The notes under the pieces: generated by a model
What the model was told of the DNA's origin: nothing
The model's database searches: none
What the model saw: the letters and a program-made list of their open reading frames with translations, nothing else
Assembly: GCA_006226565.1 (NCBI GenBank)
Contig: SBGO01000334.1
Coordinates: 359 to 64,358, forward strand
Source of the DNA: Deltaproteobacteria bacterium
GTDB lineage: Bacteria > Myxococcota_A > UBA9042 > PHBI01
Reading direction: 5' to 3'
Length of the DNA: 64,000 nucleotides
Program-made: the position numbers and the translations under genes
Part shown: positions 20,905-46,962 of the stretch, piece after piece
Layout: each line of letters opens with the position of its first letter
Numbering within the stretch: the first letter of the stretch is position 1

Positions 20905-20908
<4 letters not shown>

Positions 20909-24468: not shown

Positions 24469-24504
24469 CCGTCCGGCCGAAGCGGCGTCGGACGGCACTT
24501 TTTT
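24469..24504 (+). terminator. GC-rich stem-loop followed by a T6 run (intrinsic-terminator-like or attenuator-like), inside the recC / AAA-operon divergent intergenic region
   Basis: CCGTCCG(24469-75) ...loop GCCGAAGCGGCGT... CGGACGG(24489-95), then CAC, then TTTTTT (24499-24504). A perfect TTGACA lies at 24451-24456 just upstream. The hairpin ends about 90 nt before the AAA-operon ATG. Confidence 0.35.
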
Positions 24505-24558
24505 CACCCTTACTTTCTGCAACTTGCGCCGCCAGGGGCTCAGATCTGAGTCGCCGCG

Positions 24559-24573
24559 CGTAGTAGGGGGGCA
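24559..24573 (+). promoter_or_regulatory. conserved 15-nt motif CGTAGTAGGGGGGCA, copy 1, 22 nt upstream of the tandem-AAA gene start
   Basis: The identical 15-mer recurs at 29847-29861. Both copies are followed by a short spacer, a T-run, a Shine-Dalgarno sequence (GGAGGAGAG / GAGGTGGA) and a start codon. Confidence 0.4.
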
Positions 24574-24595
24574 AAACGAAGATTTTGGAGGAGAG

Positions 24596-30749: not shown

Positions 30750-32762
30750 TCACCCTGGCGCTGGTCCTCGCAGGTGCGGTTCCTCGCATTGGTCGAGGTG
30801 GGGGGTGCAGCCGAGGAGGCAGTGCTCGGAGGCGGGGTCGCGGGGATCGTCGCCTTCGCGGAAGCAGCCGGCGGCGCAGTCGAGGAAGCAGCGCTCGCCG
30901 GCGGGTAGCTCGGCCGCTTCGCCCAGCGCCCCCACGAGGGCGCCGGAGTAGCCGTGGCTCGCGTCGGCCTGGCCCTCGTAGCGCCAGAGCCCGACGAGCG
31001 CGTCGCCGTGGCGGGCCACACGCACGACCATGTCGACCGTGTATCTGTTCGGCGAGAAGAGCTGGCTCCGGCCGGTGAAAGTCCGCTCCTTGCTCGCCCG
31101 GACGATGGTGATAGCCCCCTTCATACGGCCGGGACGCGGGGCGAGATCCCCGGGCTCGGTGTAGCCGGACTTCATCAGCCGCCCTTCGAGACTTCCCGAA
31201 TCGCTCCCGACATGAAGGCTCAGAGTGTAGTGCCCGCGTGTCCCGACAGCGTTGGGGCGCTCATTCTCCGCGTGCACCACCTCGGTGTCGACACGCCAGC
31301 GCCCTACGAGCGTCGCCGCTGGTGACTCGACGGAGGATGCCGACTTCGCGCCGTCTGTCGGGCTCTTCGCTGCCTCGACTCGCACCGGGGCGCCGGCACT
31401 CCCTGTCTCACGTCCCTTGGCCGAACGGACGACGGCCGCCGCCTCGCGCGGGGCCAACAGCGCCCCCCGCTTGGGGGCGCTCGATTGCACCGCGGCGGGG
31501 GCGGACCTAGTCGGAGGCGCCGTCGAGCCGACACCAGCGTTGCGGGCTGAAGCAGGCTTCGGTGCGACGGTGCTCGTCGGTCTGTTAGGCGCAGTCGAAG
31601 GCGGTGCGACAGCGGCCGGTGCGACCTTGCCGGGAGGTTCCGCTCCCATGGTTCGAGCACCGTTCGCCAACACCGGCTGCTCGCGTGAAGCGCCGCCATG
31701 AGAGTTGAACGCGACGATGGCCGCGGCGGCGCCTCCCGCGAGGACGAGCGCCAAGAGCAAGGGCCACAACGTGTGACGATGCCGACGCGGGGCCCTCGAC
31801 AGGCTCCCGCCCGCATCTCGGGAGCGCGAGGACGTCGCGCGACGTCGAACGCCGACCGACTGCTCGTCCGGACCGGCAATCAGGGCCGGGGCGTCGTAGC
31901 GGGTGATGTCCGTCGGGCGGCGCTCGCTCTCCAACCACGCGAAATCGACCGCGTCGTGGCGCTCTTTGAGATCGACGTAGACGTTGTGCGGCTTCAGCCC
32001 ATCGAAGGTGAGGCGGGCGTCGCCTTCATTTCCGATTCCGTTGAACAGGCAAATCTGCGCTCTGTTGTCGTCCAATCTCCACTGCAAGAACGCGTCGAGA
32101 TCCAACGCGTACCGCGACTCGGGCGACACGACGTAGAACCGGTCCTTCTGGAGCACGCCACGCCAGCGGCGCTCGGCGTACATCGGGTGGTCGGTGGCCG
32201 CTCCGCGATACGACCTGACCTCGCCGCGAAAGTTGTCCCCAGGGCGCGCGTCGTAGTTCATGACGCAAACCAGCTCGAGGTTTCTGAGCCAAGTCAGGGA
32301 CTCCAAGAGCGAGATCGTCGCCGCGTGGAGCCCCGTCACCAGGGCGCCGCGTTCGACGTCGCGCAGCGCTCCCCCGGCGTGCGAGCTGCGGTTGCGCAGC
32401 TTCCTGTAACGCTGGAGTGAGCCTCGCGCGTGCTCGGGCCAGGCGATGAGCTCATCGCCCAGCCCCGGCGCGATTCGCCCATTCCGGAGGGCCTTCGAGA
32501 GGTCCCGAACGACGTAGAGCCAATCCCCCAGCGTCCAGCCGTAGCGCTGCGAGCTCGAGAGCCGCGACGGAAGCTCGTGCCCCTCCGCGAGCAGCGTTGC
32601 GGCCTGCATCGACGCCACGAATCGCAGCGCTACCTCGATCACCGCGACCAGCGGATCATTGTCCAGCTCCTTCACGTTCGTCGCGTTCTTCCACGCGTTC
32701 GCGATCGGGAAGGGGAGCTCTTCGTAGAACCACGCGGGTCCGTTTTCCGGTGGCGCGCTCAT
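30750..32762 (-). CDS. hypothetical single-pass membrane protein (about 330-aa cytoplasmic N-domain, one TM helix, Pro/Ala-rich linker, C-terminal extracytoplasmic domain)
   Basis: ORF 30750..32762 starts with ATG. The TM segment is LWPLLLALVLAGGAAAAIVAF. No catalytic motif was recognised. Confidence 0.5.
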   Translation of the reverse strand: MSAPPENGPAWFYEELPFPIANAWKNATNVKELDNDPLVAVIEVALRFVASMQAATLLAEGHELPSRLSSSQRYGWTLGDWLYVVRDLSKALRNGRIAPGLGDELIAWPEHARGSLQRYRKLRNRSSHAGGALRDVERGALVTGLHAATISLLESLTWLRNLELVCVMNYDARPGDNFRGEVRSYRGAATDHPMYAERRWRGVLQKDRFYVVSPESRYALDLDAFLQWRLDDNRAQICLFNGIGNEGDARLTFDGLKPHNVYVDLKERHDAVDFAWLESERRPTDITRYDAPALIAGPDEQSVGVRRRATSSRSRDAGGSLSRAPRRHRHTLWPLLLALVLAGGAAAAIVAFNSHGGASREQPVLANGARTMGAEPPGKVAPAAVAPPSTAPNRPTSTVAPKPASARNAGVGSTAPPTRSAPAAVQSSAPKRGALLAPREAAAVVRSAKGRETGSAGAPVRVEAAKSPTDGAKSASSVESPAATLVGRWRVDTEVVHAENERPNAVGTRGHYTLSLHVGSDSGSLEGRLMKSGYTEPGDLAPRPGRMKGAITIVRASKERTFTGRSQLFSPNRYTVDMVVRVARHGDALVGLWRYEGQADASHGYSGALVGALGEAAELPAGERCFLDCAAGCFREGDDPRDPASEHCLLGCTPHLDQCEEPHLRGPAPG

Positions 32763-32811: not shown

Positions 32812-34668
32812 TCACTGCCCGGTCACAGCGACGGCGAAAGTGTGCAGCCCCTCGGCGAGCTGGGCGAGCGGTGCGTCGGTCCCTGGCGCCCATACGTCAG
32901 CGAGGAAACGTTGTATCGCGGTCCTGCTCAGGACGAGCTCCAGCGAGGTGAGGCGCGCATGGAGGTGCACGACATGGCGCTCGGGAGGGGCCATCGCCAT
33001 CGTCACGTAGGTCGCGAGCGCGCAGCCGACACGCAAGGCGGAGTGGACGTCGTCGGAGAGAGCCTCACTGCCGTTGGCAGCCGCGTCACGGCGGGCGCCC
33101 TCTGCGGGCTCGGGGGACGAGGACGCACCGAGAGCGAAGACGAAGTCGCTCGTGCATCCGAATGCTGCGGCGTATGGAGCTCCGCTGTGCAGTGCGAACG
33201 CGGGATCGGCGTCGAGGGGGACCCGCTTGGGCGCGGGCTCGAACGCCATCAAGGCCTCCCGAAAGGTCTTGGGGTGCGACCCGCCATGAGCGAGTAGCTC
33301 CTCCGCCACCTCGTAGATCGTCTGCCGCCAGGGGAACAGGATCGGCACGAGGAGAGGGACGAGGCTCGCGTCGCCGGGTGGTGCTGGACCCACGTCTCGA
33401 AGTGCGAGGGGCACCGCGGCCAACAGCTCCCCGTTCCGCGTCACCTCCAACCGAATCGGTACATCATCCGCACCACCGCCGAGGCGCTCACCCCACGCCC
33501 GCAGGTCCTCCTGCAACCCATGGTAGAGGAGCGAGAGGCGGCGAACGAGCCCACGCGCCAGGCCGGCCGGTCCCCCCTGAACGAGGCACCTGACAGCCAT
33601 CGGCAGCACGAGGAGATCCGGAAAACGCATCACGGCCTCCTCGACGACGCTCGGCGGGAGCCGTCGCACGATGCCGTGTCGGAGCAGCGGCTCCGCGCTC
33701 AGCTGCAGCGCGAGCGCCGCTACGTCAGGGTCGGCGGCGTGCTCGAGAAGCTGCACGGTCGTGGTGCCCGCATCGACCGTGGACAGCGCGAACGCCGCCC
33801 CCGCGATCGCGCGGCACACACCGCCCTGCTCGAAACGCGACGCGAACCACGTCCGGAAGGTGCGGGAACCGCGGTGAGAGGGTTCCAGCGCGGCCAACGC
33901 GCCGGTCACGACCTGGCCGCCGATCGTTCCCTTGGCCACGCGCTTCGCGACCGCATCGAAGCAACGATGCACGAGAGGCAAGTGAGCATCCCGCGGCCAT
34001 GGCCTCCGCTCCAGGAGGTCCAGGGCGAGGAACATCACGAGAGTCCAATCGGTCGACGTCCCATCCTCCGAGACGCGAGCCAGGACCGAGCTGACGACCC
34101 GTTCTGGGCTCGCGTGCCCCTCGAACACGCTGACGACGATCGGACGCCACTCGTAGGCTCTCCAAAGTTGGCGCAGAATCTCAGCCTCATCAGTGCCCGC
34201 GCGACGCGCCGCGCGGAGCGTTCCAACACCGGCAAGCGCCGCGTGGAGGGTCGGGGTCGAGAACGCGAGGTTCCCATCCTTGGTGGGCTGGAGGAGCGCC
34301 GGAGCCTCACTCGCGACGCCCAGAATCGACGCAGCGTCGAGGTGGTCCGCGCCGGGTGTGGCGCCCAACACCGCACCGAGTGCCTCGCCCACCAGATCCG
34401 GTGCGATAGCCGGGTATGCAACTTCGCCGGAGAGCCTGACATCCTTCCCACGGCGTCCCTTCCGCAGCTTGCGCATCCTGGCGGCCAGGTCTTGCAGGAT
34501 GCCCAAGGCCATCGCGGGCTCCGGCCACTCCGGGTGACGCTCGTGGCGACGCGCCAGCGCGACATCCAGCCATAGCCGCGTTCGCCTTGCACCAACGTCG
34601 CCGGCCCTGCTCGTGCCAATCGCACCGAGGAGCGCAGCCAATCCCTCGTCGATTGGGCTCGATGTCAT
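32812..34668 (-). CDS. hypothetical protein (618 aa)
   Basis: ORF 32812..34716. ATG at 34668 (MTSSPIDEGL, codon 17) is preceded by GGAGA with a 7-nt spacer. It is divergent from the sigma54 activator gene. No motif was recognised. Confidence 0.5.
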   Translation of the reverse strand: MTSSPIDEGLAALLGAIGTSRAGDVGARRTRLWLDVALARRHERHPEWPEPAMALGILQDLAARMRKLRKGRRGKDVRLSGEVAYPAIAPDLVGEALGAVLGATPGADHLDAASILGVASEAPALLQPTKDGNLAFSTPTLHAALAGVGTLRAARRAGTDEAEILRQLWRAYEWRPIVVSVFEGHASPERVVSSVLARVSEDGTSTDWTLVMFLALDLLERRPWPRDAHLPLVHRCFDAVAKRVAKGTIGGQVVTGALAALEPSHRGSRTFRTWFASRFEQGGVCRAIAGAAFALSTVDAGTTTVQLLEHAADPDVAALALQLSAEPLLRHGIVRRLPPSVVEEAVMRFPDLLVLPMAVRCLVQGGPAGLARGLVRRLSLLYHGLQEDLRAWGERLGGGADDVPIRLEVTRNGELLAAVPLALRDVGPAPPGDASLVPLLVPILFPWRQTIYEVAEELLAHGGSHPKTFREALMAFEPAPKRVPLDADPAFALHSGAPYAAAFGCTSDFVFALGASSSPEPAEGARRDAAANGSEALSDDVHSALRVGCALATYVTMAMAPPERHVVHLHARLTSLELVLSRTAIQRFLADVWAPGTDAPLAQLAEGLHTFAVAVTGQ

Positions 34669-34782
34669 CGCGGAATCTCCATGCTCGTCATTCCCCCACC
34701 GACGCTGTGCGCCCACGAAAACGCAGTCACGGTGGACCAGCGAGGTCGCATTGACAAGGCGGGTAGGCGACGCGAGATGCTT

Positions 34783-34806: not shown

Positions 34807-36465
34807 ATGGACACCACGATCGCGAGCACCCAGCGTTCACCCGTACTCCTGACGTGGCTGGCGACACGCAACGACCCCTACGAGCGAGACAAGTCCGGGG
34901 GCGCGTTCAAGGAGCCGCGCGTCTGGGGACCGACCTTGACGCTCATGGCCGACCCGGAATCTCCATACAAAGGGCGCATCGACGACGTCGTCGTCTTCCG
35001 CCAGGCCGGACCCAAGGCGGCGGACCACACGCGCGTCTACGAGGAGCTCGTCGCGGCCCTCGAGGAGCACGAGATGGCGCCGCGCCTCCACCCGGTCCTC
35101 TGGGACCACGACGACCCGACCGACCACGCCGCGATCTACGACTTCCTCCGGACGGAGGTCCCTCGCATCCGCCGTCAGTTTCGAGACCGCGAGCTGGTCA
35201 TTCACCTCTCGCCCGGCACGGCGTCCATGCACACAGTCTGGGTGCTGATGTGCGAGACCGGCTTCATTTCCCAGCCGTTCACCGCCGTGCAGTCCCTACG
35301 CCCCGGTGAACGTCGCGGCCGCGCGCCGGTCAACGCGCTCCGGCTCGGCGTCGACACCTTTTTCAAGCGCTGGCAGGAGACCAAGCCCGCCGCCGCGAGA
35401 CTCGATGACCACCAATCCCTCTGGGATCCGTCGCAGTTCCGCTCGACCAAGATGCGCGCCCTCTACGACGAAGCCCGGCGCGCCGCCCGCCTCAAGATCC
35501 CCGTCCTCATCCTCGGCGAGCGCGGGACCGGCAAGACCACCCTCGCCTCCTGGATCCGCCTCAAGAGCCCGTTCCGCAAGTCCGCGCTCGACTCGGCCTG
35601 GCCCGCCGTCCCCTGCGGGCAGTACACGAACGAGACGATGCGAGCCGAGCTCTTCGGCTACAGAAAAGGCGCCTTCACGGGCGCCACGACGCACAAGGCG
35701 GGGCTCCTCGCCGAGGCGAGCGGCGACACCCTCTTCCTCGACGAGATCGGCGACGTCTCGAAGGACCTCCAGCGCCTCCTCATCAAGGTCCTCGAGGATG
35801 GCACCTTCCAGCCTGTCGGCAGCACCAAGGTAGAGCGGACCGACGTCCGACTTCTCACCGCCACCAACCTCCCCGACAACGAGCTCCGCGGGCGCCTCGA
35901 CGCCGACTTCCTCGACCGCATCAGCGCCTTCACCCTCACCGTCCCGCCGCTGCGAGAGATCCCCGACGAGCTCGAGTGGCTCTGGCCGAACGTCCTCGAC
36001 GAGGCCGCGCGCCGCGCCGCCGCGCCGACCCGGTATGCCCAGCTCCCGAAGCGCCACCACGCCCGCTTTGTCTCGGCGCTCCAACGGCACCCGCTCCCGG
36101 GCAACATTCGCGACCTCTTTCGCGTCGCTTGGCGCTTCCTCGCCGCCCGCGCCGACGACGACGCCCCGCTCAACGTCGAAGACGCCGTCGACTACGCGCT
36201 CGCCGCGATCGACCGTGATGCGGCGCCGGATGGCTCGTCGCGCACCATCGCCCGCGCCTTCGCCGACATGGAGCCCCTCCCTCCATCCCTCGTCGCCGAA
36301 ACGCCCCTCGACCCCAACCGCGTCATCGACGACTTCAAAGCCTGGTTCGCCGCCGAGGCCCGCGCGCTCGGGCAGCGAACCGGCCAACCGCTGGGTGACC
36401 TCGTGACCGTGACGGACCGGACGCTGAGGAACTGGCGGAAGGATGATTCCGAGGCGCCGGAATAG
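34807..36465 (+). CDS. RtcR-like sigma54-dependent transcriptional activator (bacterial enhancer-binding protein): CARF-like N-terminal sensor domain plus AAA+ sigma54-interaction domain
   Basis: ORF 34681..36465; ATG at 34807 (MDTTIASTQRSPVLLTWLATR). The AAA+ core has VLILGERGTGKT (Walker A), AELFGYRKGAFTGA (the GAFTGA sigma54-contact motif) and LFLDEIGD (Walker B). The N-terminal block ELVIHLSPGTASMHTVWVLMCETGFISQPFTAVQ closely matches the RtcR CARF segment (from memory YLVHITTGTHVAQICLFLLTESRHFPARLVQ). No clear C-terminal HTH was seen. Confidence 0.75.
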   Translation: MDTTIASTQRSPVLLTWLATRNDPYERDKSGGAFKEPRVWGPTLTLMADPESPYKGRIDDVVVFRQAGPKAADHTRVYEELVAALEEHEMAPRLHPVLWDHDDPTDHAAIYDFLRTEVPRIRRQFRDRELVIHLSPGTASMHTVWVLMCETGFISQPFTAVQSLRPGERRGRAPVNALRLGVDTFFKRWQETKPAAARLDDHQSLWDPSQFRSTKMRALYDEARRAARLKIPVLILGERGTGKTTLASWIRLKSPFRKSALDSAWPAVPCGQYTNETMRAELFGYRKGAFTGATTHKAGLLAEASGDTLFLDEIGDVSKDLQRLLIKVLEDGTFQPVGSTKVERTDVRLLTATNLPDNELRGRLDADFLDRISAFTLTVPPLREIPDELEWLWPNVLDEAARRAAAPTRYAQLPKRHHARFVSALQRHPLPGNIRDLFRVAWRFLAARADDDAPLNVEDAVDYALAAIDRDAAPDGSSRTIARAFADMEPLPPSLVAETPLDPNRVIDDFKAWFAAEARALGQRTGQPLGDLVTVTDRTLRNWRKDDSEAPE

Positions 36466-36558: not shown

Positions 36559-36574
36559 TGGCCCACGGCTTGCG
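36559..36574 (+). promoter_or_regulatory. sigma54 (RpoN) -24/-12 promoter: TGGCCC-ACGGC-TTGCG
   Basis: It matches TGGCAC-N5-TTGCW with correct GG-to-GC spacing (11 nt). The predicted TSS is about 36586, 27 nt before the first ATG of the downstream operon (36613) and directly downstream of the sigma54 activator gene. Confidence 0.6.
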
Positions 36575-36612
36575 TAGGTCCTCGGTGTCCCCGCCACCAC
36601 CGAGGCCACCGC

Positions 36613-36909
36613 ATGCAAGCGACGCTCAGCCTGACGCATCACGCCGCGTACCGCGCCCGCACGCGCAGCATCCCCGCCGAGGCGCTCGACGCGGCCATGA
36701 CGTTCGGGCGCCACCGCGCGGTCCGCAACGCCGACATCTACACCCTCGGCTGGCGTGAGGTCCGGGCGCTCGCCGCCCGCGGCATCGACGTCGCCCGCTG
36801 GGAGGGCGTCGAGGTCGTCTGCTCGCACGACGGCGACGTCCTCACGACCTACCGCAACACCAACGCTCGCGCGCTCCGCCGGCCCTACGGCGTCCGCCGC
36901 GCGGCGTGA
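36613..36909 (+). CDS. small DUF4258-like protein, first gene of the sigma54 operon
   Basis: ORF 36613..36909 (98 aa). LTHHAAYRARTRSIPAEALDAAMTFG resembles the DUF4258 H-A-x-x-R-x-x-x-R-x-I core. This assignment is tentative. Confidence 0.4.
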   Translation: MQATLSLTHHAAYRARTRSIPAEALDAAMTFGRHRAVRNADIYTLGWREVRALAARGIDVARWEGVEVVCSHDGDVLTTYRNTNARALRRPYGVRRAA

Positions 36910-37655
36910 TCCAGCCGCTCGCGCGGTCGGTGTTGCGAACCGACCGCGCGAGCCTCTCCAACGCGAACGTGCAAATCAGCCCAACCACAACGGAGTACCG
37001 CCTCATGGCCGGATTCAAAGACTTCACGACCCAGACCGCGCGCCCCCTCCCCGTCATCATCCTCGCCGACGTGTCCGGCAGCATGGAGGGCGGCGGCAAG
37101 ATCCAGGCGCTCAACCACGCCCTCCGCGAGATGCTCGAGGCCTTCTCGGACGAGTCGGACCTCCGCGCGGAGATCCACGTCGCCGTCCTCACCTTCGGCG
37201 GCACGGCCAAGGTCCACATCCCGCTCGCCACCTCCGCGAAGGTCCGCTGGAACGACCTCGGCGCCGGCGGGGGGACCCCGATGGGGCAGGCGTTCGAGCT
37301 GACCCGCGCGATGGTCGAGGACCGCGCCACCATCCCGGGCCGCGCGTACCGGCCGACCCTGGTCCTGCTGTCGGACGGCCAGCCGACCGACGCCTGGCAG
37401 CAGCCCCTCGCCGCGCTCCTCGGCAGCGAGCGCGCCAGCAAGGCATTCCGCATGGCCCTCGCCATCGGGGAGGACGCCGATCGTACGGTCCTCGCGGCCT
37501 TCCTCGCCAACCCCGAGGCGCGCGTCTTCGAGGCGCACGAGGCGCGCCAGATTCGAGACTTCTTCCAGCTCGTCACGATGAGCGTCTCGAGCCGGTCGCG
37601 GAGCGCCAACCCGAACGCCACCCCCGCCCTCCCCTTCGCCGGCTACGATGTCTGA
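36906..37655 (+). CDS. von Willebrand factor A (vWA) domain protein
   Basis: ORF 36906..37655. The GTG start overlaps the upstream stop (GTGA); an alternative ATG lies at 37005. MIDAS motifs are VIILADVSGSMEG, GGGTPMGQA and LLSDGQPTD. Confidence 0.7.
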   Translation: MIQPLARSVLRTDRASLSNANVQISPTTTEYRLMAGFKDFTTQTARPLPVIILADVSGSMEGGGKIQALNHALREMLEAFSDESDLRAEIHVAVLTFGGTAKVHIPLATSAKVRWNDLGAGGGTPMGQAFELTRAMVEDRATIPGRAYRPTLVLLSDGQPTDAWQQPLAALLGSERASKAFRMALAIGEDADRTVLAAFLANPEARVFEAHEARQIRDFFQLVTMSVSSRSRSANPNATPALPFAGYDV

Positions 37656-38346
37656 GACGCGCGTCACCGGCTGCTCCGTGCGCGGCCCCGCCCACGTTCG
37701 CGACGGCTCGCCCGGGCAGGACGCCTGGTCGGCCGTCGCGGAGCCCGTCGCCTTCGCCGTCGCGTGCGACGGGATGGGGAGCCGCCCCCTCGCCCACGAG
37801 GGAGCCCGCGCCGCGACTCGGGCAGCGCTGCGGGCGTGGCGTCTGTGGCGTCGGTCGAACGCAGGCAGCCCCGAAGATCTCGTGCGCCTCATCGAGGTCC
37901 TGTGGCGTCTCGACCTCGGCGGGATCGCCCCCGCCGAGGCCTGCACGACGTGCCTCGTCTACGCCGAGGACCTCCACGGCCGGGCCGTGGTCGCACAGCT
38001 CGGCGACGGGCTCATCGTGCGACGCTCGCCGGACGGCGCTGTCACGACACATCCATCGCGGAAGCTCGACTTCGGGACCACCCACGCGCTCGGCGCCCCG
38101 CACACCCTCGCGGACTGGTCCTTGGCCGTCGCCCCGCCGCTCGCGCCGGGAGAGTCGCTGCTCCTCGCGACCGACGGCGTCTCCGAGGACCTCCTCCGCG
38201 ATCGGCTCGACGGCCTCATGCGCTGGCTCCACGCCGAGCTCGACAGCCGGCGGGCCCCCCATCACTGGCTCCGCCGGGAGCTCCACCGCTGGCCGGTCGC
38301 TCACCACGGCGACGACAAGACCCTCGTCATGCTGAGGAGATCATGA
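37648..38346 (+). CDS. PP2C-family Ser/Thr protein phosphatase
   Basis: ORF 37648..38346 overlaps the vWA gene by 8 nt. PP2C motifs are VACDGMGS, LLLATDGVSE and DDKTLVML. Confidence 0.75.
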   Translation: MSETRVTGCSVRGPAHVRDGSPGQDAWSAVAEPVAFAVACDGMGSRPLAHEGARAATRAALRAWRLWRRSNAGSPEDLVRLIEVLWRLDLGGIAPAEACTTCLVYAEDLHGRAVVAQLGDGLIVRRSPDGAVTTHPSRKLDFGTTHALGAPHTLADWSLAVAPPLAPGESLLLATDGVSEDLLRDRLDGLMRWLHAELDSRRAPHHWLRRELHRWPVAHHGDDKTLVMLRRS

Positions 38347-39683
38347 AACGCGAACACCGAGTCGTCATCGACGAGAACGGCACCCGCTACAGCCTGACGA
38401 ACCGCATCGGCAGAGGCGGTCAGGGTGAGGTCTGGCGGACCGACAGCGCCCACCGAATCGTCAAGCTCCAGACGAGCTCCCAGAACCCAGAGGTCACGCG
38501 GCGGCAGTTCGTCTTCGTGCGACGGCTCGATCTGCGCGGGCTCCACGTCGCCAAGCCCATCGCCGTCCTCGCCCCGCCGGCGGTCGGCTACGTCGCGGAG
38601 TTCCTGAGCGACATGACGCCCATTCGAACGCTGATGGAAGCCCCCGCCGAGGACCTCGTCGCGTGGCACGTCAGAACCGGAGGCCTGCGCCGCCGGCTCC
38701 GCCTCCTCGCTCACGCCGGCGAGACGCTCGTGGCGCTCCACGGTCGCGGCATCGTCTATGCGGATGTGTCCGACAACAACGTCTTCGTCTCGGAGCCCGT
38801 CGACGCGAGCGAGGCGTGGCTCATCGACCTCGACAACCTCAGCTACGCCAGCGATCCCCAACGCGCGGTCTACACGCCCGGCTACGGCGCCCCCGAGGTC
38901 GTCGCCCGGCGGGCCGGCTGCACCTCCCTCTCCGACGCGTGGGCCTTCGCCGTCCTCGTGTGGCGCGTCCTTACCCTCGGCCACCCTTTCGTCGGCGACT
39001 GGGTCGACGAAGGCGAGCCGGAGCTCGAAGACCAGGCGATGGCCGGCGAGCTGCCGTGGGTCGAGTGCGAGGACGACGACCGCAACCACTGCTCGACCGG
39101 TCTCCCCCCCGAGGTCACCGTGGGAAACCTGCTCCTCGGGCTCGCGCGCCGGACCTTCGAAGCCGGCCGCAGCGACCTGCGGGCGCGCCCCGGGCTGTCG
39201 GAGTGGGTCCACGCGCTCCACGCGACCGCCGACCAGACCCTGACCTGCCACGAGTGTACGGCGACCTACCTCGCGTCGGCGCCGGAGTGCCCGTGGTGCG
39301 AGGCGCAGCGGACCGAAGAGCTCCCGCTCAGGCTCGTCCGCTGGGACCCGGACCACGGCGTCGTCCGCTCTGCGGTCGCGCTCCGGCCGGTGCCGGTCAC
39401 CACCTTCCGCACCACCTTGACGCGCCGCACGACGGAGGGCGCGAGCGGCCTCATGGGCCGGGAGCCGCACGTCGAGCTCGCGCTCGTCGGGCGCGGCGTG
39501 ACCGTCCACGCCGCCGCAGGCCGCTCCGTGTGGGTCGGCCGACTCGATCGCTCCTCGGGGAAGCTCGTCGAGCGCCACGACGCCTCGTCTCGTCCCCGCA
39601 TCGTGCCGCGCAGCGGCTGGGTCATCTTCTTCGACGACCCGGCGAGGCCGCAGCGCGTCGGCCTGCTCGGAGGTGCCGCGTGA
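38343..39683 (+). CDS. Hanks-type Ser/Thr protein kinase with a C-terminal zinc-ribbon region
   Basis: This is the C-terminal 446 codons of ORF 37764..39683. The ATG at 38343 overlaps the PP2C stop (ATGA). Kinase motifs are GRGGQGEVW (Gly loop), IVKL (Lys), YADVSDNNV (catalytic loop), DLD (DFG-like) and YGAPE (APE). CHEC...CPWC forms a zinc ribbon. Confidence 0.8.
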   Translation: MKREHRVVIDENGTRYSLTNRIGRGGQGEVWRTDSAHRIVKLQTSSQNPEVTRRQFVFVRRLDLRGLHVAKPIAVLAPPAVGYVAEFLSDMTPIRTLMEAPAEDLVAWHVRTGGLRRRLRLLAHAGETLVALHGRGIVYADVSDNNVFVSEPVDASEAWLIDLDNLSYASDPQRAVYTPGYGAPEVVARRAGCTSLSDAWAFAVLVWRVLTLGHPFVGDWVDEGEPELEDQAMAGELPWVECEDDDRNHCSTGLPPEVTVGNLLLGLARRTFEAGRSDLRARPGLSEWVHALHATADQTLTCHECTATYLASAPECPWCEAQRTEELPLRLVRWDPDHGVVRSAVALRPVPVTTFRTTLTRRTTEGASGLMGREPHVELALVGRGVTVHAAAGRSVWVGRLDRSSGKLVERHDASSRPRIVPRSGWVIFFDDPARPQRVGLLGGAA

Positions 39684-42600
39684 AGATCCACGAAGTCACC
39701 AGCGGCGTCGCCGCGACCCTGCGCGTCACCAACCCGGAGGGCGCCTTCAGCCCGCCGCCCGCGACCGGCGATGAGCTGGTCCTGGTCTCGTCCTCCGATC
39801 AGATCCTCGCCCGCGCCGGCGACCTGGTCTGGCCCGTTCGAGGCACCACGCCGCTGGATCACGACGCGCTCGTTCGCGTGGTCGACGGCGCCGGTCCGTT
39901 CGTCGCATTCGTCGCCCGCTGTGTGGACGACACCATGGTCGTCGAGACGCGACGCTTCCGATCCGAGGTTCGGCTCGGTGAGCCGCTCGACATCGGCCTC
40001 GACGACAAGGCCCTCGACGACCTGCGCCGTACCACCCGTCGCGGCGGCAGCGTCGTCGACATCGTGCGGTGGCTATCGGAGCAGTTGCTGCTCCCACCGA
40101 TCCCCGGAGGGCCCTCCGAGCTCGCCCGCTTCGTGGTCGCAGGCGACCTGCGCGACCGGCCGGACGTCTTCCGCATCTACGGCCGCAGGCTGGCCGTCGA
40201 CGTGCGCCGTGCGGATGGGAAGCTCCGGGTCGAGCGCGCGGCCCGCGGCGCGACGCCCGGGAGGGAGCCGCTGACGCTGATGCTCGCCCCGGTGAGGTTC
40301 GTGGACGCGACCCTGACGGCGGAGCTCACGACGGAGGCCCGAGCCGCGCTCGAGCAGGCGGTGGCCGACGCTGGCAGCTACCTCGCGATGTGGGAGCACT
40401 TCCACGCGCTCGACGTCGCGACCACGGAGCAGCAGGCCCGAGCCTTCGGCGCGGTGGAGTACACCTCGCGGAAGCAGGGCCCCGAGCGCGGCTGGACCTT
40501 TCGCCTCGTGAAGGACGAGTCCCTCGCCGAGCGACTCGCCGTGCTCGCCGACGGCCACGGCGTGACACTCGAGGTCGGCGAGCGCGCACCGTCCTTCGAC
40601 GGCACCGGGAGGCCGAGGCGGAAGGAAGAGGGTCAGAAAGTCCCCTTCTCCAGCCACGTCACCCACCTCGACGCCGGCAAGGGGCGACTCGATCTCGCGC
40701 CGGCCGACGATGAGGCTGCAGCACCACCAGAGAAGGGCTTCCTGTTCATCGCGCGCGCTGGCGATCGGACGCGTCAGGCCCGGCGCGAGCGCGCCGAGGA
40801 GGCGCTCCGAAACGGGACCTGCCCGATGCCCCAGCTCGGCCTCCTGATGGAAGGGCGGCCCGCCCCGGCCGCTCGCCTGCCGCGGCGACCCGCGATGAGC
40901 CCCGCCGTCCGGGCGCTGTTCGGCCCCGACGGGCCCACCCAGCGACAGCGCGAGGCCATCGAGCGCGCACTGAACACGCCCGACGTCTGCCTCATCCAGG
41001 GGCCCCCGGGCACCGGCAAGACCAAGGTCATCACCGCTATCGAGGCCCGCGTCGCGGAGCTGGCCGACGAGGGCCTCGAGGTCTCGCACCGCGTCCTCGT
41101 CACCGCGGCCCAGCACGACGCCGTCGAGAACGTCGCCCAACGGACCGACGTCTTCGGCCTGCCGGCCGTCAAGATCGGCCGGCGACGAGGCGACGACGGC
41201 GACGGCGAGGACGCCGTCGATCGGTTCCGCGAGGACCGCATCGACGCGCTGCGTGCCAAGCTCCGCGTCCCCCCCGAGGCCGAGCGGCTCGCGAAGGCGC
41301 GCGCGATGGCGGTAGCCTGCATGCGCACCCGCGCGCTCCCCGACGCCCAGGCGCGACGCGTCCGCGAGATCGCGTCCACGCTCGACGGCCTGCTCCCCCC
41401 GGCGCTCGTGGACCGCGCGCTGGACCGCGCGGCCAGCCTGGAGTCGCGCTCGGACGCCGGAGACCCGGAGCAGCGCGAGCTCGAGCTGCGCGCCGCCCGC
41501 GGGATCCGCGTCACCCCCGGCCCATTCTCCGATGACGGCCCGCTCCAGGCCGCCAAGGCGCTGCGGCGCCTCGACGACCGACTGACGCCCGACGAGCGCG
41601 CCTACCTCGAGCGCTGCGCTCAGGTCGAGCAGGATGTGGCGCCCGATTGGATCGATGCCGGTGCGCCGCTCCGTGACGCGCTCATCGACCGCCTCTCCTC
41701 GGCCGCGACGCCGACCGAGGCGCGCCTCGACGACGACACCCAGCGGCTCCTCCTCACGCTCCTCGACGCCGTGGACCACCGCTACGCAAGCGCCGAACTC
41801 GGAGACGGCGCCGCGATCGCCGGCTTCATGCGAGACCTCGAGGGCGACCCCGAGGGCGTCCGCGAGATGCTCCAGCACTACACCGTCGTCCTCGCGGCGA
41901 CGCTCCAGCAGGCTGCCGGGCGCCGCATGATGGCGGCGCGCGGTCTCACCAGCGGTAGCGCCGAGTTCGAGACCGTGATCGTCGACGAAGCCGCGCGAGC
42001 CCACCCCCTCGACCTGTTCATCCCGCTCAGCATGGCGAAGCGGCGCGTCGTCCTCGTCGGCGACCACCGCCAGCTCCCCCACCTGCTCGAGCCCGATGTC
42101 GAGCGTCAGCTCGCCGACGGCGTGGAGTCCGGCAGCGTCGGCCAGGAGGTCCTCGAGGCGGTGCAGGCCAGCCTCTTCCAGCGGCTCTGGGAGTCGCTGC
42201 GACACCTCGAGAAGCAGGACGGGATCAAGCGAACCGTGACGCTCGACGTTCAGTACCGGATGCATCCGGTCCTCGGCGACTTCATCAGCCGAACCTTCTA
42301 CGAGCACCACGGCGACGGGCGCGTCGAGAGTCCGCGCCCCGCGGGCGACCTGGCCCACCAGCTCCCGGAGTATCTGCGGGACGGCGAGGGTGTCCCAGCG
42401 GCGTGGCTCGACGTACCGGCCCACACAGGCGCGGAGGTGCCTGGGCGCAGCAAGCGGCGGCCCGCCGAGGCGAAGACGATGGCGCGCGAGGTGCGCCGCC
42501 TGGTCGACGCGGATCCGACGCTTACTTTCGGCGTCATCGCCTTCTACGCCGGACAGGTCGACGAGATTGGTGAGGCGATGCTCAAGGAGGGGCTCACCGA

Positions 42601-42961
42601 GCGGACCCACGACGGGCGCGGCTGGGAAGTCGCCGCGGGCTACCGAACGACGGTCGACGCGGACGGACGGCGCGTCGAGCGGCTGCGCGTCGGGACCGTG
42701 GACGCCTTCCAGGGCCGAGAGTTCGACGTCGTGCTGTTGTCCGTGACCCGCTCCAACACGCTCCCCGGCGCCACGCCCGAGCAGCAGCGCCGGAAGTACG
42801 GGCACCTGATGCTCGACAACCGCCTCTGTGTCGCGATGAGCCGACAAAAGCGGTTGCTAATCGCCGTCGGCGACCTCTCTTTCGTGCGTGAGGCCGAGCC
42901 GCTGCGCGCGCTGCGGGAGCTTGCCCGACTCTGTGGAGGAAGCCATGGCGTCATTCGATAA
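39680..42961 (+). CDS. SF1 Upf1/DNA2-like helicase with an about 500-aa N-terminal domain of unknown function
   Basis: This is the C-terminal 1093 codons of ORF 38663..42961. The GTG at 39680 overlaps the kinase stop (GTGA) and is preceded by GGAGG. Helicase motifs are CLIQGPPGTGKTKV (I), TVIVDEAARA (II), VLVGDHRQLP (III), YRMHP (IV), VDAFQGREFDVVLLS (V) and VAMSRQKRLL (VI). Confidence 0.8.
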   Translation: MKIHEVTSGVAATLRVTNPEGAFSPPPATGDELVLVSSSDQILARAGDLVWPVRGTTPLDHDALVRVVDGAGPFVAFVARCVDDTMVVETRRFRSEVRLGEPLDIGLDDKALDDLRRTTRRGGSVVDIVRWLSEQLLLPPIPGGPSELARFVVAGDLRDRPDVFRIYGRRLAVDVRRADGKLRVERAARGATPGREPLTLMLAPVRFVDATLTAELTTEARAALEQAVADAGSYLAMWEHFHALDVATTEQQARAFGAVEYTSRKQGPERGWTFRLVKDESLAERLAVLADGHGVTLEVGERAPSFDGTGRPRRKEEGQKVPFSSHVTHLDAGKGRLDLAPADDEAAAPPEKGFLFIARAGDRTRQARRERAEEALRNGTCPMPQLGLLMEGRPAPAARLPRRPAMSPAVRALFGPDGPTQRQREAIERALNTPDVCLIQGPPGTGKTKVITAIEARVAELADEGLEVSHRVLVTAAQHDAVENVAQRTDVFGLPAVKIGRRRGDDGDGEDAVDRFREDRIDALRAKLRVPPEAERLAKARAMAVACMRTRALPDAQARRVREIASTLDGLLPPALVDRALDRAASLESRSDAGDPEQRELELRAARGIRVTPGPFSDDGPLQAAKALRRLDDRLTPDERAYLERCAQVEQDVAPDWIDAGAPLRDALIDRLSSAATPTEARLDDDTQRLLLTLLDAVDHRYASAELGDGAAIAGFMRDLEGDPEGVREMLQHYTVVLAATLQQAAGRRMMAARGLTSGSAEFETVIVDEAARAHPLDLFIPLSMAKRRVVLVGDHRQLPHLLEPDVERQLADGVESGSVGQEVLEAVQASLFQRLWESLRHLEKQDGIKRTVTLDVQYRMHPVLGDFISRTFYEHHGDGRVESPRPAGDLAHQLPEYLRDGEGVPAAWLDVPAHTGAEVPGRSKRRPAEAKTMAREVRRLVDADPTLTFGVIAFYAGQVDEIGEAMLKEGLTERTHDGRGWEVAAGYRTTVDADGRRVERLRVGTVDAFQGREFDVVLLSVTRSNTLPGATPEQQRRKYGHLMLDNRLCVAMSRQKRLLIAVGDLSFVREAEPLRALRELARLCGGSHGVIR

Positions 42962-44405
42962 AGACACTCCGGTGCTTCGCTTCACGAAGCTGCGGAAGCC
43001 GGACGTGCGGTGGGTCCTCTGGCCCGTCCTGGCGTGGCGCGTGGTCGCGCCCGTGCCCCAAGGGCGCCGGTTGAACCTGCTCCAGAAGGCCGCGCTCGGG
43101 TTGGTGCGTGCCGGTGTGACGACGGCGCAAGATGTGTCGGAGCGGCTCCTGATCCTGCCCGACCTCGCGGCCCTCGTGCTCACCGAGCTGCAGGGGATGC
43201 GCCTCGTCGACGAGCTCGGCGCGCTGACACCGAGGGGCGCCGAGCTCGTCGACGAGCTCGACGTCGACCCGCCCGAGGCCCTCGAGGTCGGACACGTCCT
43301 CGCCGATCCGTTCACAGGCAGCCTCTGGCCGCGGCTCTTGACCGGGGACCTCCCGCTGGCGGAGGTCGAGCAGAACGACCAGGGGTGGCCGGTGCTCCTG
43401 AGCGGAAGTCCGGGCGCCCCCTGGCGCGACCATGCCTTCTGCGTGCTGCCGCGACGCGACGACGCCGTGGTCATCGCGCGTCCCGGGGCGAAGGACATCC
43501 TGAGGGCGGCGCGGCGCGGCCGGCGCGTGGCGCAAGCGATGGGCGACGCCGCCCCGGCGCTCCGGCTCGTCTCGTTCATCGACGAGCGGCCGGAGCCCTA
43601 TCTCGCCGCGCTCCCGGTGGTCTCGCACGCCTCGGGCGACTGGATCGTCCTCGATCCCTTCGGCGGCGGCGCGTCCTTCGAGCTGCGCCGGCAGGTCGAG
43701 CGACGCCTCGACGTGCAGCCCGGACTCCGTGCCTGGCTCGCACCGCTCGTGGGGGGCGACGTCGTCGAGGCGACCACCGCGGAGCTCCAGCGACGCGCGG
43801 CGTGGGAGGTCGAGGAGCAGCTGACGCTGGGCGTACGCCGCTTCGCGGGCGTCCACGACCACCTGGTGGCGATGCAGCGAGCGTGGCTCGAGGCGCAGGC
43901 GTGGGAGTCCCCTGACGACAAGGTCGACGACGTGCTCGTCAAGGCGCAGCGCGCGGTGGAAGCGACGATTCGCGAGGTCCTGCGCGGGCACTCCGATCCT
44001 GACGAGCGCCTCTACCTGCAGCTCGCCCCTTCCCACGTGAAGGGATATCAGCGCCAGAACCGCGGCCTCCTGGACGACATCGCTGCTGGGCTCGGCTTCG
44101 CCTCGCCGCTACCGACACAGCTCTCCGGTGTGAAGCCCGGCAAGGTCCAGAGCGCCGAGCAGAGCCTGCGCGGGAGCCTCCGACCGCTGCTGCTCGCCAC
44201 GCTGCTCGCCGCGGACCGGAACGACCGGCACCCACTGCGGCGTTCCGCCAGCGCCTGTCCTGACCTGCTCGAGCGCCTCGACGCCCTGGCCTCCGCCCGC
44301 GACCGCGCCGCCCATGACGGCGACGGCGCGTGGCCCGAGCGCCTCCCCGTACACCTCGAGACGACCTACGACATCGTTCGACACCTCCTGCTCCACAACG
44401 CCTGA
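42945..44405 (+). CDS. hypothetical protein (486 aa)
   Basis: ORF 42888..44405. ATG at 42945 (MASFDKDTPV) is preceded by GGAGGAAG and overlaps the helicase 3' end by 17 nt. No motif was recognised. Confidence 0.5.
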   Translation: MASFDKDTPVLRFTKLRKPDVRWVLWPVLAWRVVAPVPQGRRLNLLQKAALGLVRAGVTTAQDVSERLLILPDLAALVLTELQGMRLVDELGALTPRGAELVDELDVDPPEALEVGHVLADPFTGSLWPRLLTGDLPLAEVEQNDQGWPVLLSGSPGAPWRDHAFCVLPRRDDAVVIARPGAKDILRAARRGRRVAQAMGDAAPALRLVSFIDERPEPYLAALPVVSHASGDWIVLDPFGGGASFELRRQVERRLDVQPGLRAWLAPLVGGDVVEATTAELQRRAAWEVEEQLTLGVRRFAGVHDHLVAMQRAWLEAQAWESPDDKVDDVLVKAQRAVEATIREVLRGHSDPDERLYLQLAPSHVKGYQRQNRGLLDDIAAGLGFASPLPTQLSGVKPGKVQSAEQSLRGSLRPLLLATLLAADRNDRHPLRRSASACPDLLERLDALASARDRAAHDGDGAWPERLPVHLETTYDIVRHLLLHNA

Positions 44406-44433: not shown

Positions 44434-46962
44434 ATGACCAAGCCGCGCAAGCACCCGAAGTCCCGTCCGCAGCCCAGCCCGAAGAGCGCCGAGAAGAGCG
44501 CGTCGACCGAAGAGGTCGCCGAGGTCGAGACGATCGAGGCAGAGGCAGCCGCCCTGACCGGGTCGCTCGGCGCCCCCCCTGCGCCCGCGGAGCCGCAGAG
44601 CACCGACGTCGCGCTCGGCACGCTGGTGGCCCGCGCTGCGAAGGCCCTCGAGGAGCTCAAGGGGCACCTCGCCACGGCGAAGACGACCCGCGACGCAGCC
44701 GAGCGCCGGGCCAGGCAGGTCGCGGAGGAGGCGGACGCGTTGCAGGCCGAGCGGACCGCGCTCGAGGAGGCTCGACGCGCCGCCGAGTCTCGGGACGCCA
44801 GCCTCGCCGAGCGCGAGGCGTCCGTCGTGGCGCGGGAGCTCGACGCCGAGCGCGGATTCCTCGCGCACAAGGCGGAGATCCTCGGGGGCCTCGAGGCGGA
44901 CGTGAGCGCGCTCCGCGCCCAGCGCACGGCGCTCGCCGACGAGCTGCGGGGGCGCCGAGAGAGCGCGGAGGAGGAGGCGCGCAAGAAGGTGGAGGCGCAC
45001 GAGCGCAAGTGGGCCGACGCGCAGAAGAAGCGGAGCGAGCACGCGGCGAAGGCGCGCCTGGAGCTCGACGAGGCGCTCGCTCGCGACCGTGAGACCGGCC
45101 TCGCCGAGACCCGCAAGAAGCTCCAGGAGGAGCGAGAGCGGGTGCGTGCAACCCTGGACGCGGAGCGGTCAGCCCTCGATGCGGAGATCATGGCACGGCA
45201 CGGCGCGCTGCAGGCCCACTCGGACGCCCTCGACACGCGCGAGCGGGAGCTTCGGATCACCGAGCGTGACCTCCTCGTCGATCAGGACCTCATGAAAGAG
45301 GAGCGCGAGGCCCTCGACAAGAAGGTCGCCCGCCTCGTGGCGGAGTCGACCGAGCAGCTCCGGCACGAGCTCGCGAGCGCGACCACGCTGCTGAAGGAGG
45401 CGCGGGCTCAGCGTGATGGCTACTGGGCCGACCTCGAGGCCCGACGCGAGCTGGACCGCCGCTTCGGCGGACGAACGCCCGAGGAGATCCTGGCCCACCT
45501 CCAGCACGTCGAGCGGGAGCGTGACGAGCTGACGCGCCAGCTCCGCGAGCGCCCCGACGAGCGCGCGGCGACGCGGCTCGCCAACCTCGAGCGCGAGCGC
45601 TCCGACTGGCACGACCAGCGCGCGAGCCTCGAGGTGGATCTCGCCAACGCGCGCTCCGAGCTGAGCACCCGGCGCATCGCGGCCATCGAGCTCGAGGGCC
45701 TGCGGCGGGAGAAGGAGGCCCTGCGCACGACGAACGCGCTGCTCGACCAGGCGCTCTCCGAGCTCGACGCCAAGGTCACGGAGCTCACCCACCAGGACGA
45801 CAAGCGCAACCCGATGACCGCCCTCACGGCCCTGGACGCCGACGAGGTTCTCCAGCTGCCGCGTCGCACGGTCGCGCCGCTGCACGGCGCAACGCCGGAC
45901 CTGCGCGCGTTCGCGGAGGATCTGCGTCACCGCATCGCCCATGGTGTCGAGGGGCGGACCCTCTACTACACGGCGGAGGACATCCGAGCGTTCCTCGGCG
46001 GCCTCGCGATGACGCAGCTCATGCTCCTCCAGGGCATCTCCGGGACGGGGAAGACGAGCCTGCCGCTCGCCTTCGCGAGCGCGGTCGGGGGCGACGTGGA
46101 GGTCGTCGAGGTGCAGGCGGGCTGGCGCGACCGACAGGACCTGGTCGGCTACTACAACGCCTTCCACAAGCACTACTACGCGACGAGCTTCCTGCAGGCG
46201 CTCTACCGGGCGGGCACGCCGGCGAACAAGGACCGCGTCTTCCTGATGGTCCTCGACGAGATCAACCTGTCCCGGCCCGAGCAGTTCTTCGCCGACTTCC
46301 TGTCCGCGCTGGAGCAGCCGACGGAGAAGCGCCGCCTCACGCTGGTCAACGACCCGATCACGGCCGCGCCGAAGCTCCTCGTGGACGGTCGCCACTTGCC
46401 GATCCCGCCGAACGTGTGGTTCGTCGGGACGGCCAACCACGACGAGACGACCGTGGCGTTCGCGGACAAGACCTACGATCGGGCCCACGTCATGGAGATG
46501 CCGCGGAACACCGACGCAGCGCGCTTCGAGGTCGAGCACAAGAACGGCCGCGGCACCATCTCGCACCAGGGGCTCATCGACGCCTTCGCCGCCGCCGCGG
46601 CCAAGCGGAGCAACGAGGTCGAGCACGCGACGCAGTGGCTGCGCCAGGCGCCGTTCGCCGAGACCCTCGGGCGTCGCTTCCGGGTCGGCTGGGGCAACCG
46701 CCTCGAGCAGCAGCTGGGGCGCTACCTCCCCGTCATCGTCGAAGCCGGGGGCAGCGTGGGTGAGGCGATGGATCACCTCCTCGTGACGAAGGTCTTCCGC
46801 AAGCTCGCGGACCGGCATGACGTGCGGGCGGAGGCGCTCGGCACCCTCAAGGACGAGCTCCTCACGACCTGGCTGGACCTCGACAAAGCTCACGGCCCCG
46901 AGCGCTGCGCGGCGCTCCTCGACCGCGAGATCGAGGCGAAGCTGGGGGAGGATCTGGCTTGA
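44434..46962 (+). CDS. McrB-like AAA+ GTPase/ATPase with an about 480-aa N-terminal coiled-coil region
   Basis: ORF 44314..46962. ATG at 44434 (MTKPRKHPK) is preceded by AAGGAAAG. The AAA region has LLQGISGTGKTS (Walker A), LMVLDEINLSRPEQFFADFLSALE (a McrB-type DEIN...F..L..LE Walker B plus sensor) and FVGTANHDE. The upstream half is highly charged (heptad-like ER/EA/AL repeats). Confidence 0.65.
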   Translation: MTKPRKHPKSRPQPSPKSAEKSASTEEVAEVETIEAEAAALTGSLGAPPAPAEPQSTDVALGTLVARAAKALEELKGHLATAKTTRDAAERRARQVAEEADALQAERTALEEARRAAESRDASLAEREASVVARELDAERGFLAHKAEILGGLEADVSALRAQRTALADELRGRRESAEEEARKKVEAHERKWADAQKKRSEHAAKARLELDEALARDRETGLAETRKKLQEERERVRATLDAERSALDAEIMARHGALQAHSDALDTRERELRITERDLLVDQDLMKEEREALDKKVARLVAESTEQLRHELASATTLLKEARAQRDGYWADLEARRELDRRFGGRTPEEILAHLQHVERERDELTRQLRERPDERAATRLANLERERSDWHDQRASLEVDLANARSELSTRRIAAIELEGLRREKEALRTTNALLDQALSELDAKVTELTHQDDKRNPMTALTALDADEVLQLPRRTVAPLHGATPDLRAFAEDLRHRIAHGVEGRTLYYTAEDIRAFLGGLAMTQLMLLQGISGTGKTSLPLAFASAVGGDVEVVEVQAGWRDRQDLVGYYNAFHKHYYATSFLQALYRAGTPANKDRVFLMVLDEINLSRPEQFFADFLSALEQPTEKRRLTLVNDPITAAPKLLVDGRHLPIPPNVWFVGTANHDETTVAFADKTYDRAHVMEMPRNTDAARFEVEHKNGRGTISHQGLIDAFAAAAAKRSNEVEHATQWLRQAPFAETLGRRFRVGWGNRLEQQLGRYLPVIVEAGGSVGEAMDHLLVTKVFRKLADRHDVRAEALGTLKDELLTTWLDLDKAHGPERCAALLDREIEAKLGEDLA

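Follow-up and report, generated by a model that had tools for sequence, protein, structure and literature searches.

What does a trio of a vWA protein, a PP2C-family phosphatase and a Ser/Thr kinase do when its genes stand directly in front of a helicase gene? Such a trio lies on the + strand of contig SBGO01000334.1 from a Deltaproteobacteria bacterium (GenBank assembly GCA_006226565.1; GTDB lineage Myxococcota_A), within a 64 000 nt stretch (contig positions 359 to 64 358) that we refer to as the window. An initial annotation, made from the letters of the window, had read the trio as a phospho-switch that controls the helicase and nuclease encoded downstream. We put the probability at about 0.8 that the trio is a TerY-P triad embedded in a complete nine-gene Type II CoCoNuT anti-phage cassette; the locus is a new example of an already described system, not a new system.

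The triad within a conserved nine-gene cassette

Owing to the high G+C content of the window (~72%), true reading frames were picked by third-position GC. An actinobacterial source, which such a G+C content might suggest, was rejected, as the nearest relatives are Myxococcota and a σ54 activator belongs to the locus. On the + strand between ~34.7 and 52.2 kb there are ten genes, all co-directional, and from the second of them (g2) through cnuC the genes are closely packed or overlapping. The window proteins were searched with Pfam, PADLOC and NCBIfam models, and every window gene was compared by tblastn with a set of 47 loci around homologues of the kinase, which has > 480 close homologues of ~442 amino acids (aa) each. 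NCBIfam held no model specific to any of the cassette proteins.

Across at least five phyla, the genes stand in one fixed order in ~40 loci, and this order recurs wherever the contig is long enough: g1, g2 (~98 aa), vWA, PP2C, kinase, a superfamily 1 (SF1) helicase of ~1100 aa, CnuE (~490 aa), CnuB (~860 aa) and CnuC (~670 aa). Such loci occur in Myxococcota, Alphaproteobacteria (Roseomonas, Azospirillum, Rhodopila), Betaproteobacteria (Accumulibacter, Sphaerotilus), Gammaproteobacteria (Thiocapsa), Planctomycetota and Firmicutes (Oscillibacter); those of Firmicutes retain the vWA gene through the helicase gene, together with the ~860 aa gene. The genes that flank the cassette vary between genomes, with Mrr, McrB, Fic and toxin–antitoxin genes among them. 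Relatives are also carried by 22 plasmids, of which 12 are conjugative. Judged from its gene content and distribution, this is a mobile defence cassette of which the trio is one part, not free-standing.

Comparison with a published survey of conflict systems, which the initial annotation had proposed as a check, identified the architecture as that of the Type II CoCoNuTs (Bell, Sahakyan, Makarova, Wolf and Koonin, eLife 2024, PMC11090510; hereafter Bell et al.). These are described as carrying a TerY-P triad ('STK fused to a zinc ribbon', where STK denotes the Ser/Thr kinase), with an RtcR-like CARF regulator and a BrnT-like RelE gene upstream. Gene set and gene order are the same in the window, from the RtcR-like CARF regulator to the CnuC protein with DUF2357 and CPxC motifs, and in both the CnuH/CnuE and the CnuB/CnuC reading frames overlap. 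Specifically, the window encodes a CnuB of the NxD type, a UPF1-like CnuH beside CnuBC, a CnuE with a single HEPN domain and a CPxC/DUF2357 CnuC without Hsp70; the triad lies upstream of cnuH, and the RtcR-like regulator and a BrnT/RelE-like gene form the 5′ end. Among the features compared, none differed in architecture. Two HEPN domains in CnuE would indicate Type III-A (Bell et al., PMC11090510); the single HEPN domain of CnuE, the CPxC motifs of CnuC and the lack of an Hsp70 fusion assign the locus to Type II rather than Type III-A.

The only experimental demonstration of a Type II CoCoNuT that we found is a 2026 preprint on Obs (Obangsin), a cloned seven-gene system from Pseudomonas aeruginosa PMM16 that runs from obsA to obsG/cnuC (10.64898/2026.04.06.716636). 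Obs defends against RNA phages and one DNA phage, and its authors call it strongly homologous to Type II CoCoNuTs; transposon insertions in obsC, the third gene, and in obsG abolished defence (10.64898/2026.04.06.716636). Counted along the gene order, obsC would correspond to the kinase gene. The Obs host belongs to a different phylum, and we liken Obs to the window by its description and its gene order.

The comparative set also included a divergent clade (e.g. Rhodopila locus L039) whose CnuE is 728 aa long and which resembles Type III-A. A further Type III-A-like CoCoNuT lies at 1296–20901 of the Enterobacter cloacae plasmid pPOL9A (NZ_CP086409.1, IncY; locus L048). Its 5′ extension encodes a vWA protein, a hypothetical protein, an AAA ATPase and a DUF1887 CARF protein, and an IS21 element interrupts the locus before the DUF2357 gene. 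On this plasmid RefSeq names the kinase 'LPS kinase' and the CnuB homologue 'chromosome partitioning protein ParA', an example of how routine annotation mislabels the genes of the cassette.

Boundaries and motifs of the triad genes

The triad module extends from 37005 to 39683. It comprises a TerY-like vWA protein with a complete MIDAS (37005–37655, 216 aa; Pfam VWA_2, 1e-13, and VWA, 3e-11), a PP2C-family Ser/Thr phosphatase (37648–38346, 232 aa; PP2C_2, 1e-26) and the Ser/Thr kinase (38343–39683, 446 aa; Pkinase, 9e-11), in which the catalytic domain (residues 1–297) is followed by a Cys4 zinc ribbon (~299–320) and an FHA-like all-beta domain (~325–446). These domain calls agree with the three consecutive + strand genes of the initial annotation, which had further claimed four overlaps, from g2/vWA to kinase/helicase. 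Three of the four were read in the sequence: the 8-nt vWA/PP2C overlap ATGTCTGA (37648–37655), ATGA between PP2C and kinase (38343–38346) and GTGA between kinase and helicase (39680–39683). The PP2C/kinase overlap of 4 nt recurs in 33 of 44 related loci and the kinase/helicase overlap of 4 nt in 31 of 32, which bears out the claimed coupling of the helicase gene to the kinase gene; the vWA/PP2C junction varies across related loci from −13 to +40 nt.

The remaining claim, a GTGA overlap at 36906–36909, proved to be an artefact of a mis-called vWA start. Orthologous vWA proteins have 216–219 aa and all begin at a conserved Met equivalent to ATG 37005, with GGAG 10 nt upstream of it, and g2 and the vWA gene are separated by 30–189 nt in all 29 loci (95 nt in the window). 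Ortholog length, the conserved ATG with its ribosome-binding site and the invariable gap between g2 and the vWA gene exclude GTG 36906 as the start.

The vWA and PP2C motifs, which the initial annotation had reported as intact, are also invariant among orthologues. Numbered from ATG 37005, the vWA MIDAS residues D22-x-S24-x-S26 are invariant across 39 orthologues, and T92 and D124 are present as well. Likewise, PP2C residues D25, D41-G42, G119-D120-G121, D176-G177 and D222-D223-K224-T225 are invariant across 40 orthologues. The vWA protein matched the PADLOC TerY model only at E = 1e-3 and over a partial stretch, and the phosphatase matched no PADLOC family.

The kinase and its C-terminal domain

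Among 63 homologues of the kinase, G23xG25xxG28, K41, D141, N146, D162, D164, A183 and E185 are invariant, and P184 is kept in at least 90%. An AlphaFold2 (AF2) model built from these homologues scored a pLDDT of 93.4 and a pTM of 0.92, and the Foldseek matches of its first ~300 residues were all eukaryote-like kinases (E ~1e-12). The catalytic loop is non-canonical. It reads Y139-A-D141-V-S143-x-x-N146, with YAD in place of HRD and an invariant Ser in place of the Lys of HRDxK. The initial annotation had concluded from intact motifs that the enzymes are active; the residues are indeed conserved, and from this conservation we infer that the kinase may be catalytically active, although its loop is YADVSxxN and not HRDxKxxN. 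The C-terminal zinc ribbon that had been noticed on the kinase is confirmed by four cysteines (C302, C305, C316 and C319), invariant in the same 63 homologues.

C-terminal to the zinc ribbon lies a conserved all-beta domain of ~120 residues, predicted to be a beta-sandwich, that is detectable solely in this kinase family. FHA domains proper are beta-sandwiches of eleven strands. Modelled alone (pLDDT 93.8), its top fold matches in the PDB were nearly all FHA domains (Ki67, APLF, KIF1A, PNK, GarA, Rv1747, DgcB), together with SMAD-MH2; the probabilities reached 0.98, but the E-values were 0.04–0.5. Pfam FHA matched none of 28 members of the kinase family at E up to 5, and a profile of the domain gave no FHA match among PDB sequences, so that the FHA-like call is made from the predicted fold alone. 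The phospho-Thr signature of FHA domains (G-R … S-x-x-H … N) is absent from the domain, and phospho-threonine binding by it would be speculative. Neither version of the CoCoNuT paper mentions an FHA-like domain, in a comparison that covered those two versions.

Within the FHA-like domain, residues 359–373 (window ~39417–39461) form a loop, L-x-R-R-x-T-x-G-x-x-G-x-x-x-R, that is near-invariant in the Type II clade only: R362 and G369 are invariant, and T364 and R373 are present in at least 90%. The R-R-x-T stretch is like the target of a basophilic kinase, and it is pure speculation that T364 might be an autophosphorylation site.

Is the triad tied to the helicase and nuclease?

On comparative grounds, it is strongly supported that the triad is functionally linked to the helicase and nuclease encoded after it, because the gene order is kept in the ~40 loci, the kinase and helicase genes overlap in nearly all loci in which the junction was compared, a kinase and a helicase are fused in the Mokosh protein MkoA, and the triad has been hypothesized to be a phosphorylation-dependent switch (Bell et al., PMC11090510). 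The triad may control these effectors by phosphorylation. The initial annotation was right to tie the triad to its downstream genes and right that both a helicase and a nuclease are present there. It had not recognized the named nine-gene system with a CARF/σ54 regulator of its own, nor that the nuclease in direct coupling with the helicase is an RNase of the HEPN type rather than a DNase.

Type I Mokosh consists of MkoA, an STK–helicase, and MkoB, a PLD nuclease (Millman et al. 2022, 10.1101/2022.05.11.491447). It resembles the window in its homologous Upf1-like helicase (MkoA model, 8e-87), in the joining of a kinase to this helicase and in the N-terminus of the effector (a weak MkoB match, 1e-3), and one PADLOC MkoA model matches both the window kinase (model positions 106–222) and the window helicase (532–1081). 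The kinase is fused in MkoA, whereas here it is encoded by a separate gene with a 4-nt overlap; the effector carries a PLD domain there and a HEPN domain here, and Mokosh lacks the vWA protein, the PP2C phosphatase and the McrBC-like pair. Mokosh is not mentioned in the CoCoNuT paper (PMC11090510).

Could the kinase itself be the effector? It would then phosphorylate many host or phage proteins and bring about abortive infection, with the PP2C phosphatase as antidote, the vWA protein as sensor and the helicase and RNase acting in parallel. The best PADLOC matches of the kinase are in fact stand-alone or effector-type defence kinases (PD-T4-6, 1e-10; mad6, 3e-11), and TerY-P-like triads act as stand-alone defence (Gao et al. 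2020, as cited in Bell et al.). However, this subfamily never occurs without the helicase where the contig reaches far enough, its gene overlaps the helicase gene in all but one of the 32 loci, and its C-terminal domain is exclusive to the family. We consider an effector kinase unlikely.

It is very unlikely that the triad is an independent stand-alone TerY-P system of the type of Gao et al. (2020) with a separate helicase/McrBC-like system as its neighbour. In favour of this reading, the window is a defence island that also encodes a type IIG restriction–modification (RM) protein, a PLD-helicase and a type IV restriction enzyme, and Bell et al. (PMC11090510) regard TerY-P as possibly stand-alone; the domain trio of vWA, PP2C and STK is the same. 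In the account of stand-alone TerY-P defence that Bell et al. give from Gao et al. (2020), however, the kinase ends in an OB fold, whereas the window kinase ends in a zinc ribbon and the FHA-like domain. The PADLOC models tell the same way: TerY is barely matched by the vWA protein, and no TerY-P model is matched by the phosphatase or the kinase. In addition, a triad of the window type was never found alone, and from phylum to phylum it keeps strictly to its synteny and its overlap with cnuH.

A housekeeping Ser/Thr signalling module with a substrate unrelated to defence, on the pattern of the Escherichia coli kinase–PP2C–vWA cluster YegI/PphC (YegK)/YegL, whose kinase autophosphorylates in vitro (Rajagopalan and Dworkin, 10.1101/819920, 10.1101/303594), can be dismissed as extremely improbable, given that the module is patchily distributed across phyla with flanks that differ in each genome, is carried on conjugative plasmids and invariably accompanies HEPN and McrBC-type genes, and that YegI is a membrane protein of different architecture with no helicase or nuclease partner.

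The helicase, the RNase and the McrBC-like pair

CnuH, a UPF1/IGHMBP2-like SF1 helicase of 1093 aa (39680–42961, + strand), matches Pfam AAA_11 and AAA_12, the NCBIfam IGHMBP2 family and the PADLOC MkoA model given above. Its Walker A motif GPPGTGKT and its DEAAR motif are conserved. The protein has an N-terminal extension of ~400 aa with no Pfam match; an N-terminal SmpB-like OB domain and a RelE-like RTL domain are described for the CnuH proteins of Type II (Bell et al., PMC11090510). The frame of CnuE (42945–44405, + strand, 486 aa), a protein with a winged helix-turn-helix (wHTH) and a single HEPN RNase domain, overlaps the end of cnuH by 17 nt, as it does in 25 of 34 loci. The HEPN motif RxxxxH (R452-DRAA-H457) is invariant in 33 orthologues; the wHTH match is weak, the weak MkoB match lies in the N-terminus, and a PLD match was not found in CnuE.

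CnuB (44434–46962, + strand) combines a long, probably helical and possibly coiled-coil N-terminus with a McrB-like AAA+ GTPase (Pfam AAA_5; PADLOC PDC-M26A, 7e-41). Its signature GTANHDE (N-H-D-E) is of the NxD and not the NxxD form, the N and the D being kept in at least 90% of 33 orthologues, and the Walker A (GxSGTGKT) and Walker B (LDEIN) motifs are conserved. In Type II, a long coiled coil is fused N-terminally to CnuB. The composition of residues 60–480 (76% A/E/R/L/K/Q/D; 3.8% G + P) suggests a long helical region; a crude test for 3.5-residue periodicity was not significant. CnuC (46959–48968, + strand, 669 aa) is McrC-like and starts within a 4-nt overlap with cnuB that is found in 17 of 18 loci. 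Its DUF2357 match is weak (E = 2e-3, under the Pfam cutoff), its C-terminal CPxC-type zinc motifs CPVC, CPGC, CTTC and CPTC are conserved, and there was no Hsp70 match; the CnuC of Type II is characterized by DUF2357 with 2–3 CPxC motifs.

A σ54-type promoter and a 5′ hairpin upstream of the triad

The first gene of the cassette, g1 (34807–36465, + strand), encodes an RtcR-like transcriptional activator with CARF, AAA+ (σ54-interaction) and HTH domains (PADLOC RtcR_PspF1--CARF_AAA_HTH, 3e-142; Pfam Sigma54_activat, 3e-40) and adjoins the cassette in most loci. Its start is uncertain between 34681, 34777 and 34807. The best NCBIfam match of g1 was RtcR, at 192 bits against a cutoff of 650; since this score is far under the cutoff, we call g1 RtcR-like and not an RtcR orthologue. 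Just after the g1 stop codon there are repeats containing TGCCG or TTCCG, a possible activator site whose apparent conservation stems in part from the sequence coding for the g1 C-terminus.

Between g1 and g2 lies a predicted σ54-type promoter, TGGCCCacggcTTGCg (36559–36574, + strand), with the −24 GG at 36560–61 and the −12 GC at 36572–73. When 650 nt upstream of the vWA gene were scanned, TGGCAC-N5-TTGCA was matched at ≥ 9 of 11 positions in 21 of 40 loci, compared with a background of 0.048 per 650 nt, and eleven further loci had a TGGCAC-N5-TTGG/TTGA variant at the same place. The matches sit between the RtcR-like gene and g2, just upstream of g2, and the promoter holds this position in L001, L009, L023, L024, L033, L035, L037–L045 and other loci of the comparative set. 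A scan for σ70 promoters and terminators within the cassette gave nothing exceeding chance.

Downstream of the promoter, a 5′ untranslated region (UTR) stem–loop was predicted by ViennaRNA (36580–36605, + strand; CCTCGGTG pairing with CACCGAGG around a 10-nt loop), and its 3′ arm contains the Shine–Dalgarno GAGG of g2. Most loci have a GC-rich hairpin of 6–9 bp at this place, ~10–20 nt downstream of the −12 element and where the transcript of the operon is predicted to begin. The sequence of the hairpin varies between loci while the predicted pairing is kept (L007, L010, L011, L013, L017, L018, L025, L029, L038). The hairpin could be a stabilizer of the mRNA or a gate on translation of the RelE-like gene. 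Bell et al. (PMC11090510) propose RtcR-like activation, but report no σ54 promoter in their text, and no 5′ UTR hairpin either.

The gene that follows, g2 (36613–36909, + strand, 98 aa), encodes a DUF4258-family (RelE/BrnT-like) protein and is the counterpart of the 'BrnT-like RelE family' gene described upstream of RtcR-associated CoCoNuTs. When orthologues of g2 were scanned singly, 21 of 22, all syntenic, matched Pfam DUF4258 (best, 1e-6), the g2 protein of the window itself scoring below threshold; a g2 profile gave no RelE or BrnT match among PDB sequences.

Other genes of the island

On the − strand, 52178–56581 encodes a 1467 aa protein with an unusual fusion of domains, in which HIT is joined to a PLD nuclease, to a helicase of the ResIII/SNF2 type and, at the C-terminus, to a LexA-type S24 peptidase. 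Its gene converges with that of a paralogous type IV restriction enzyme of PLD-ResIII-DUF3427 architecture (~49084–52197; PADLOC mREase_IV, 3e-257). Two − strand genes, at 30750–32762 and 32812–34716, diverge from the RtcR-like gene; their coding signal is good, and their products, of 670 and 634 aa, had no match in Pfam. In L001, the corresponding position encodes a protein that is 47% identical to the 670 aa one. Further island content lies at 5465–10321 (−), 16865–24417 (−) and 24455–26815 (+), and the island includes a 1618 aa type IIG-like RM protein (Eco57I/N6_Mtase), a RecB-like/RecC-like pair and a double-AAA ATPase with a variant winged helix.

Discussion

How might such a cassette work? 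The CARF domain of g1 may sense a signal of infection or RNA damage, possibly RNA ends with 2′,3′-cyclic phosphates by analogy with RtcR, and would then switch the operon on through the σ54 promoter. The kinase as writer and the phosphatase as eraser could set a reversible phosphorylation threshold on the helicase–HEPN RNase pair, or on the kinase itself, the MIDAS of the vWA protein and the zinc ribbon and FHA-like domain of the kinase serving as possible docking or sensing surfaces. Once licensed, CnuH–CnuE together with the CnuBC GTPase complex would degrade phage RNA, host RNA or both.

A more elaborate circuit can be drawn, which we offer tentatively and hold to be doubtful. Here, the zinc ribbon and the FHA-like domain would form a docking module dependent on phospho-threonine or RNA, and the triad would become a switch of writer, eraser, reader and adaptor that licenses the helicase–HEPN RNase; the RNA ends that this RNase produces would feed back through the CARF activator and the σ54 promoter, giving a bistable circuit for abortive infection. 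If the docking reading were true, the triad would be self-contained, with the STK as writer, the PP2C phosphatase as eraser, the FHA-like domain as reader and the vWA MIDAS as adaptor. The type VI secretion proteins PpkA, PppA and Fha1 draw on the same toolkit of STK, PP2C, vWA and FHA, and there writer, eraser and reader gate the assembly of a machine. In that system the vWA domain is part of the kinase, FHA is a protein of its own and the switch leads to secretion; the likeness is one of analogy only.

Several points weigh against a phospho-switch in a Type II CoCoNuT. The triad is not counted as a core component, since some subtypes lack it (Bell et al., PMC11090510), and for this reason it may be accessory. 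For all CoCoNuTs, phosphorylation targets are so far hypothetical, and with its atypical YADVSxxN loop the kinase is a putative active enzyme. In Obs, the obsC insertion may have polar effects on the genes that follow it, and obsC was identified with the kinase by gene order. Finally, g1 scores so far below the RtcR cutoff that it need not share the ligand of RtcR.

CoCoNuTs, recognized only recently, form a widespread class of anti-phage systems whose predicted target is RNA; the locus described here is a clean and complete myxobacterial example. To the text of Bell et al. it adds the σ54 promoter, the 5′ UTR hairpin, the FHA-like domain after the zinc ribbon of the kinase and the parallel with the kinase–helicase fusion MkoA of Mokosh. 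The promoter makes the hypothesis of RtcR-like regulation directly testable, and the comparison of ~40 loci supplies further testable handles: invariant catalytic residues, a conserved coupling of kinase and helicase, and an extra kinase domain for possible docking. Collectively, this makes the locus suited to studying how a TerY-P triad regulates a CoCoNuT.

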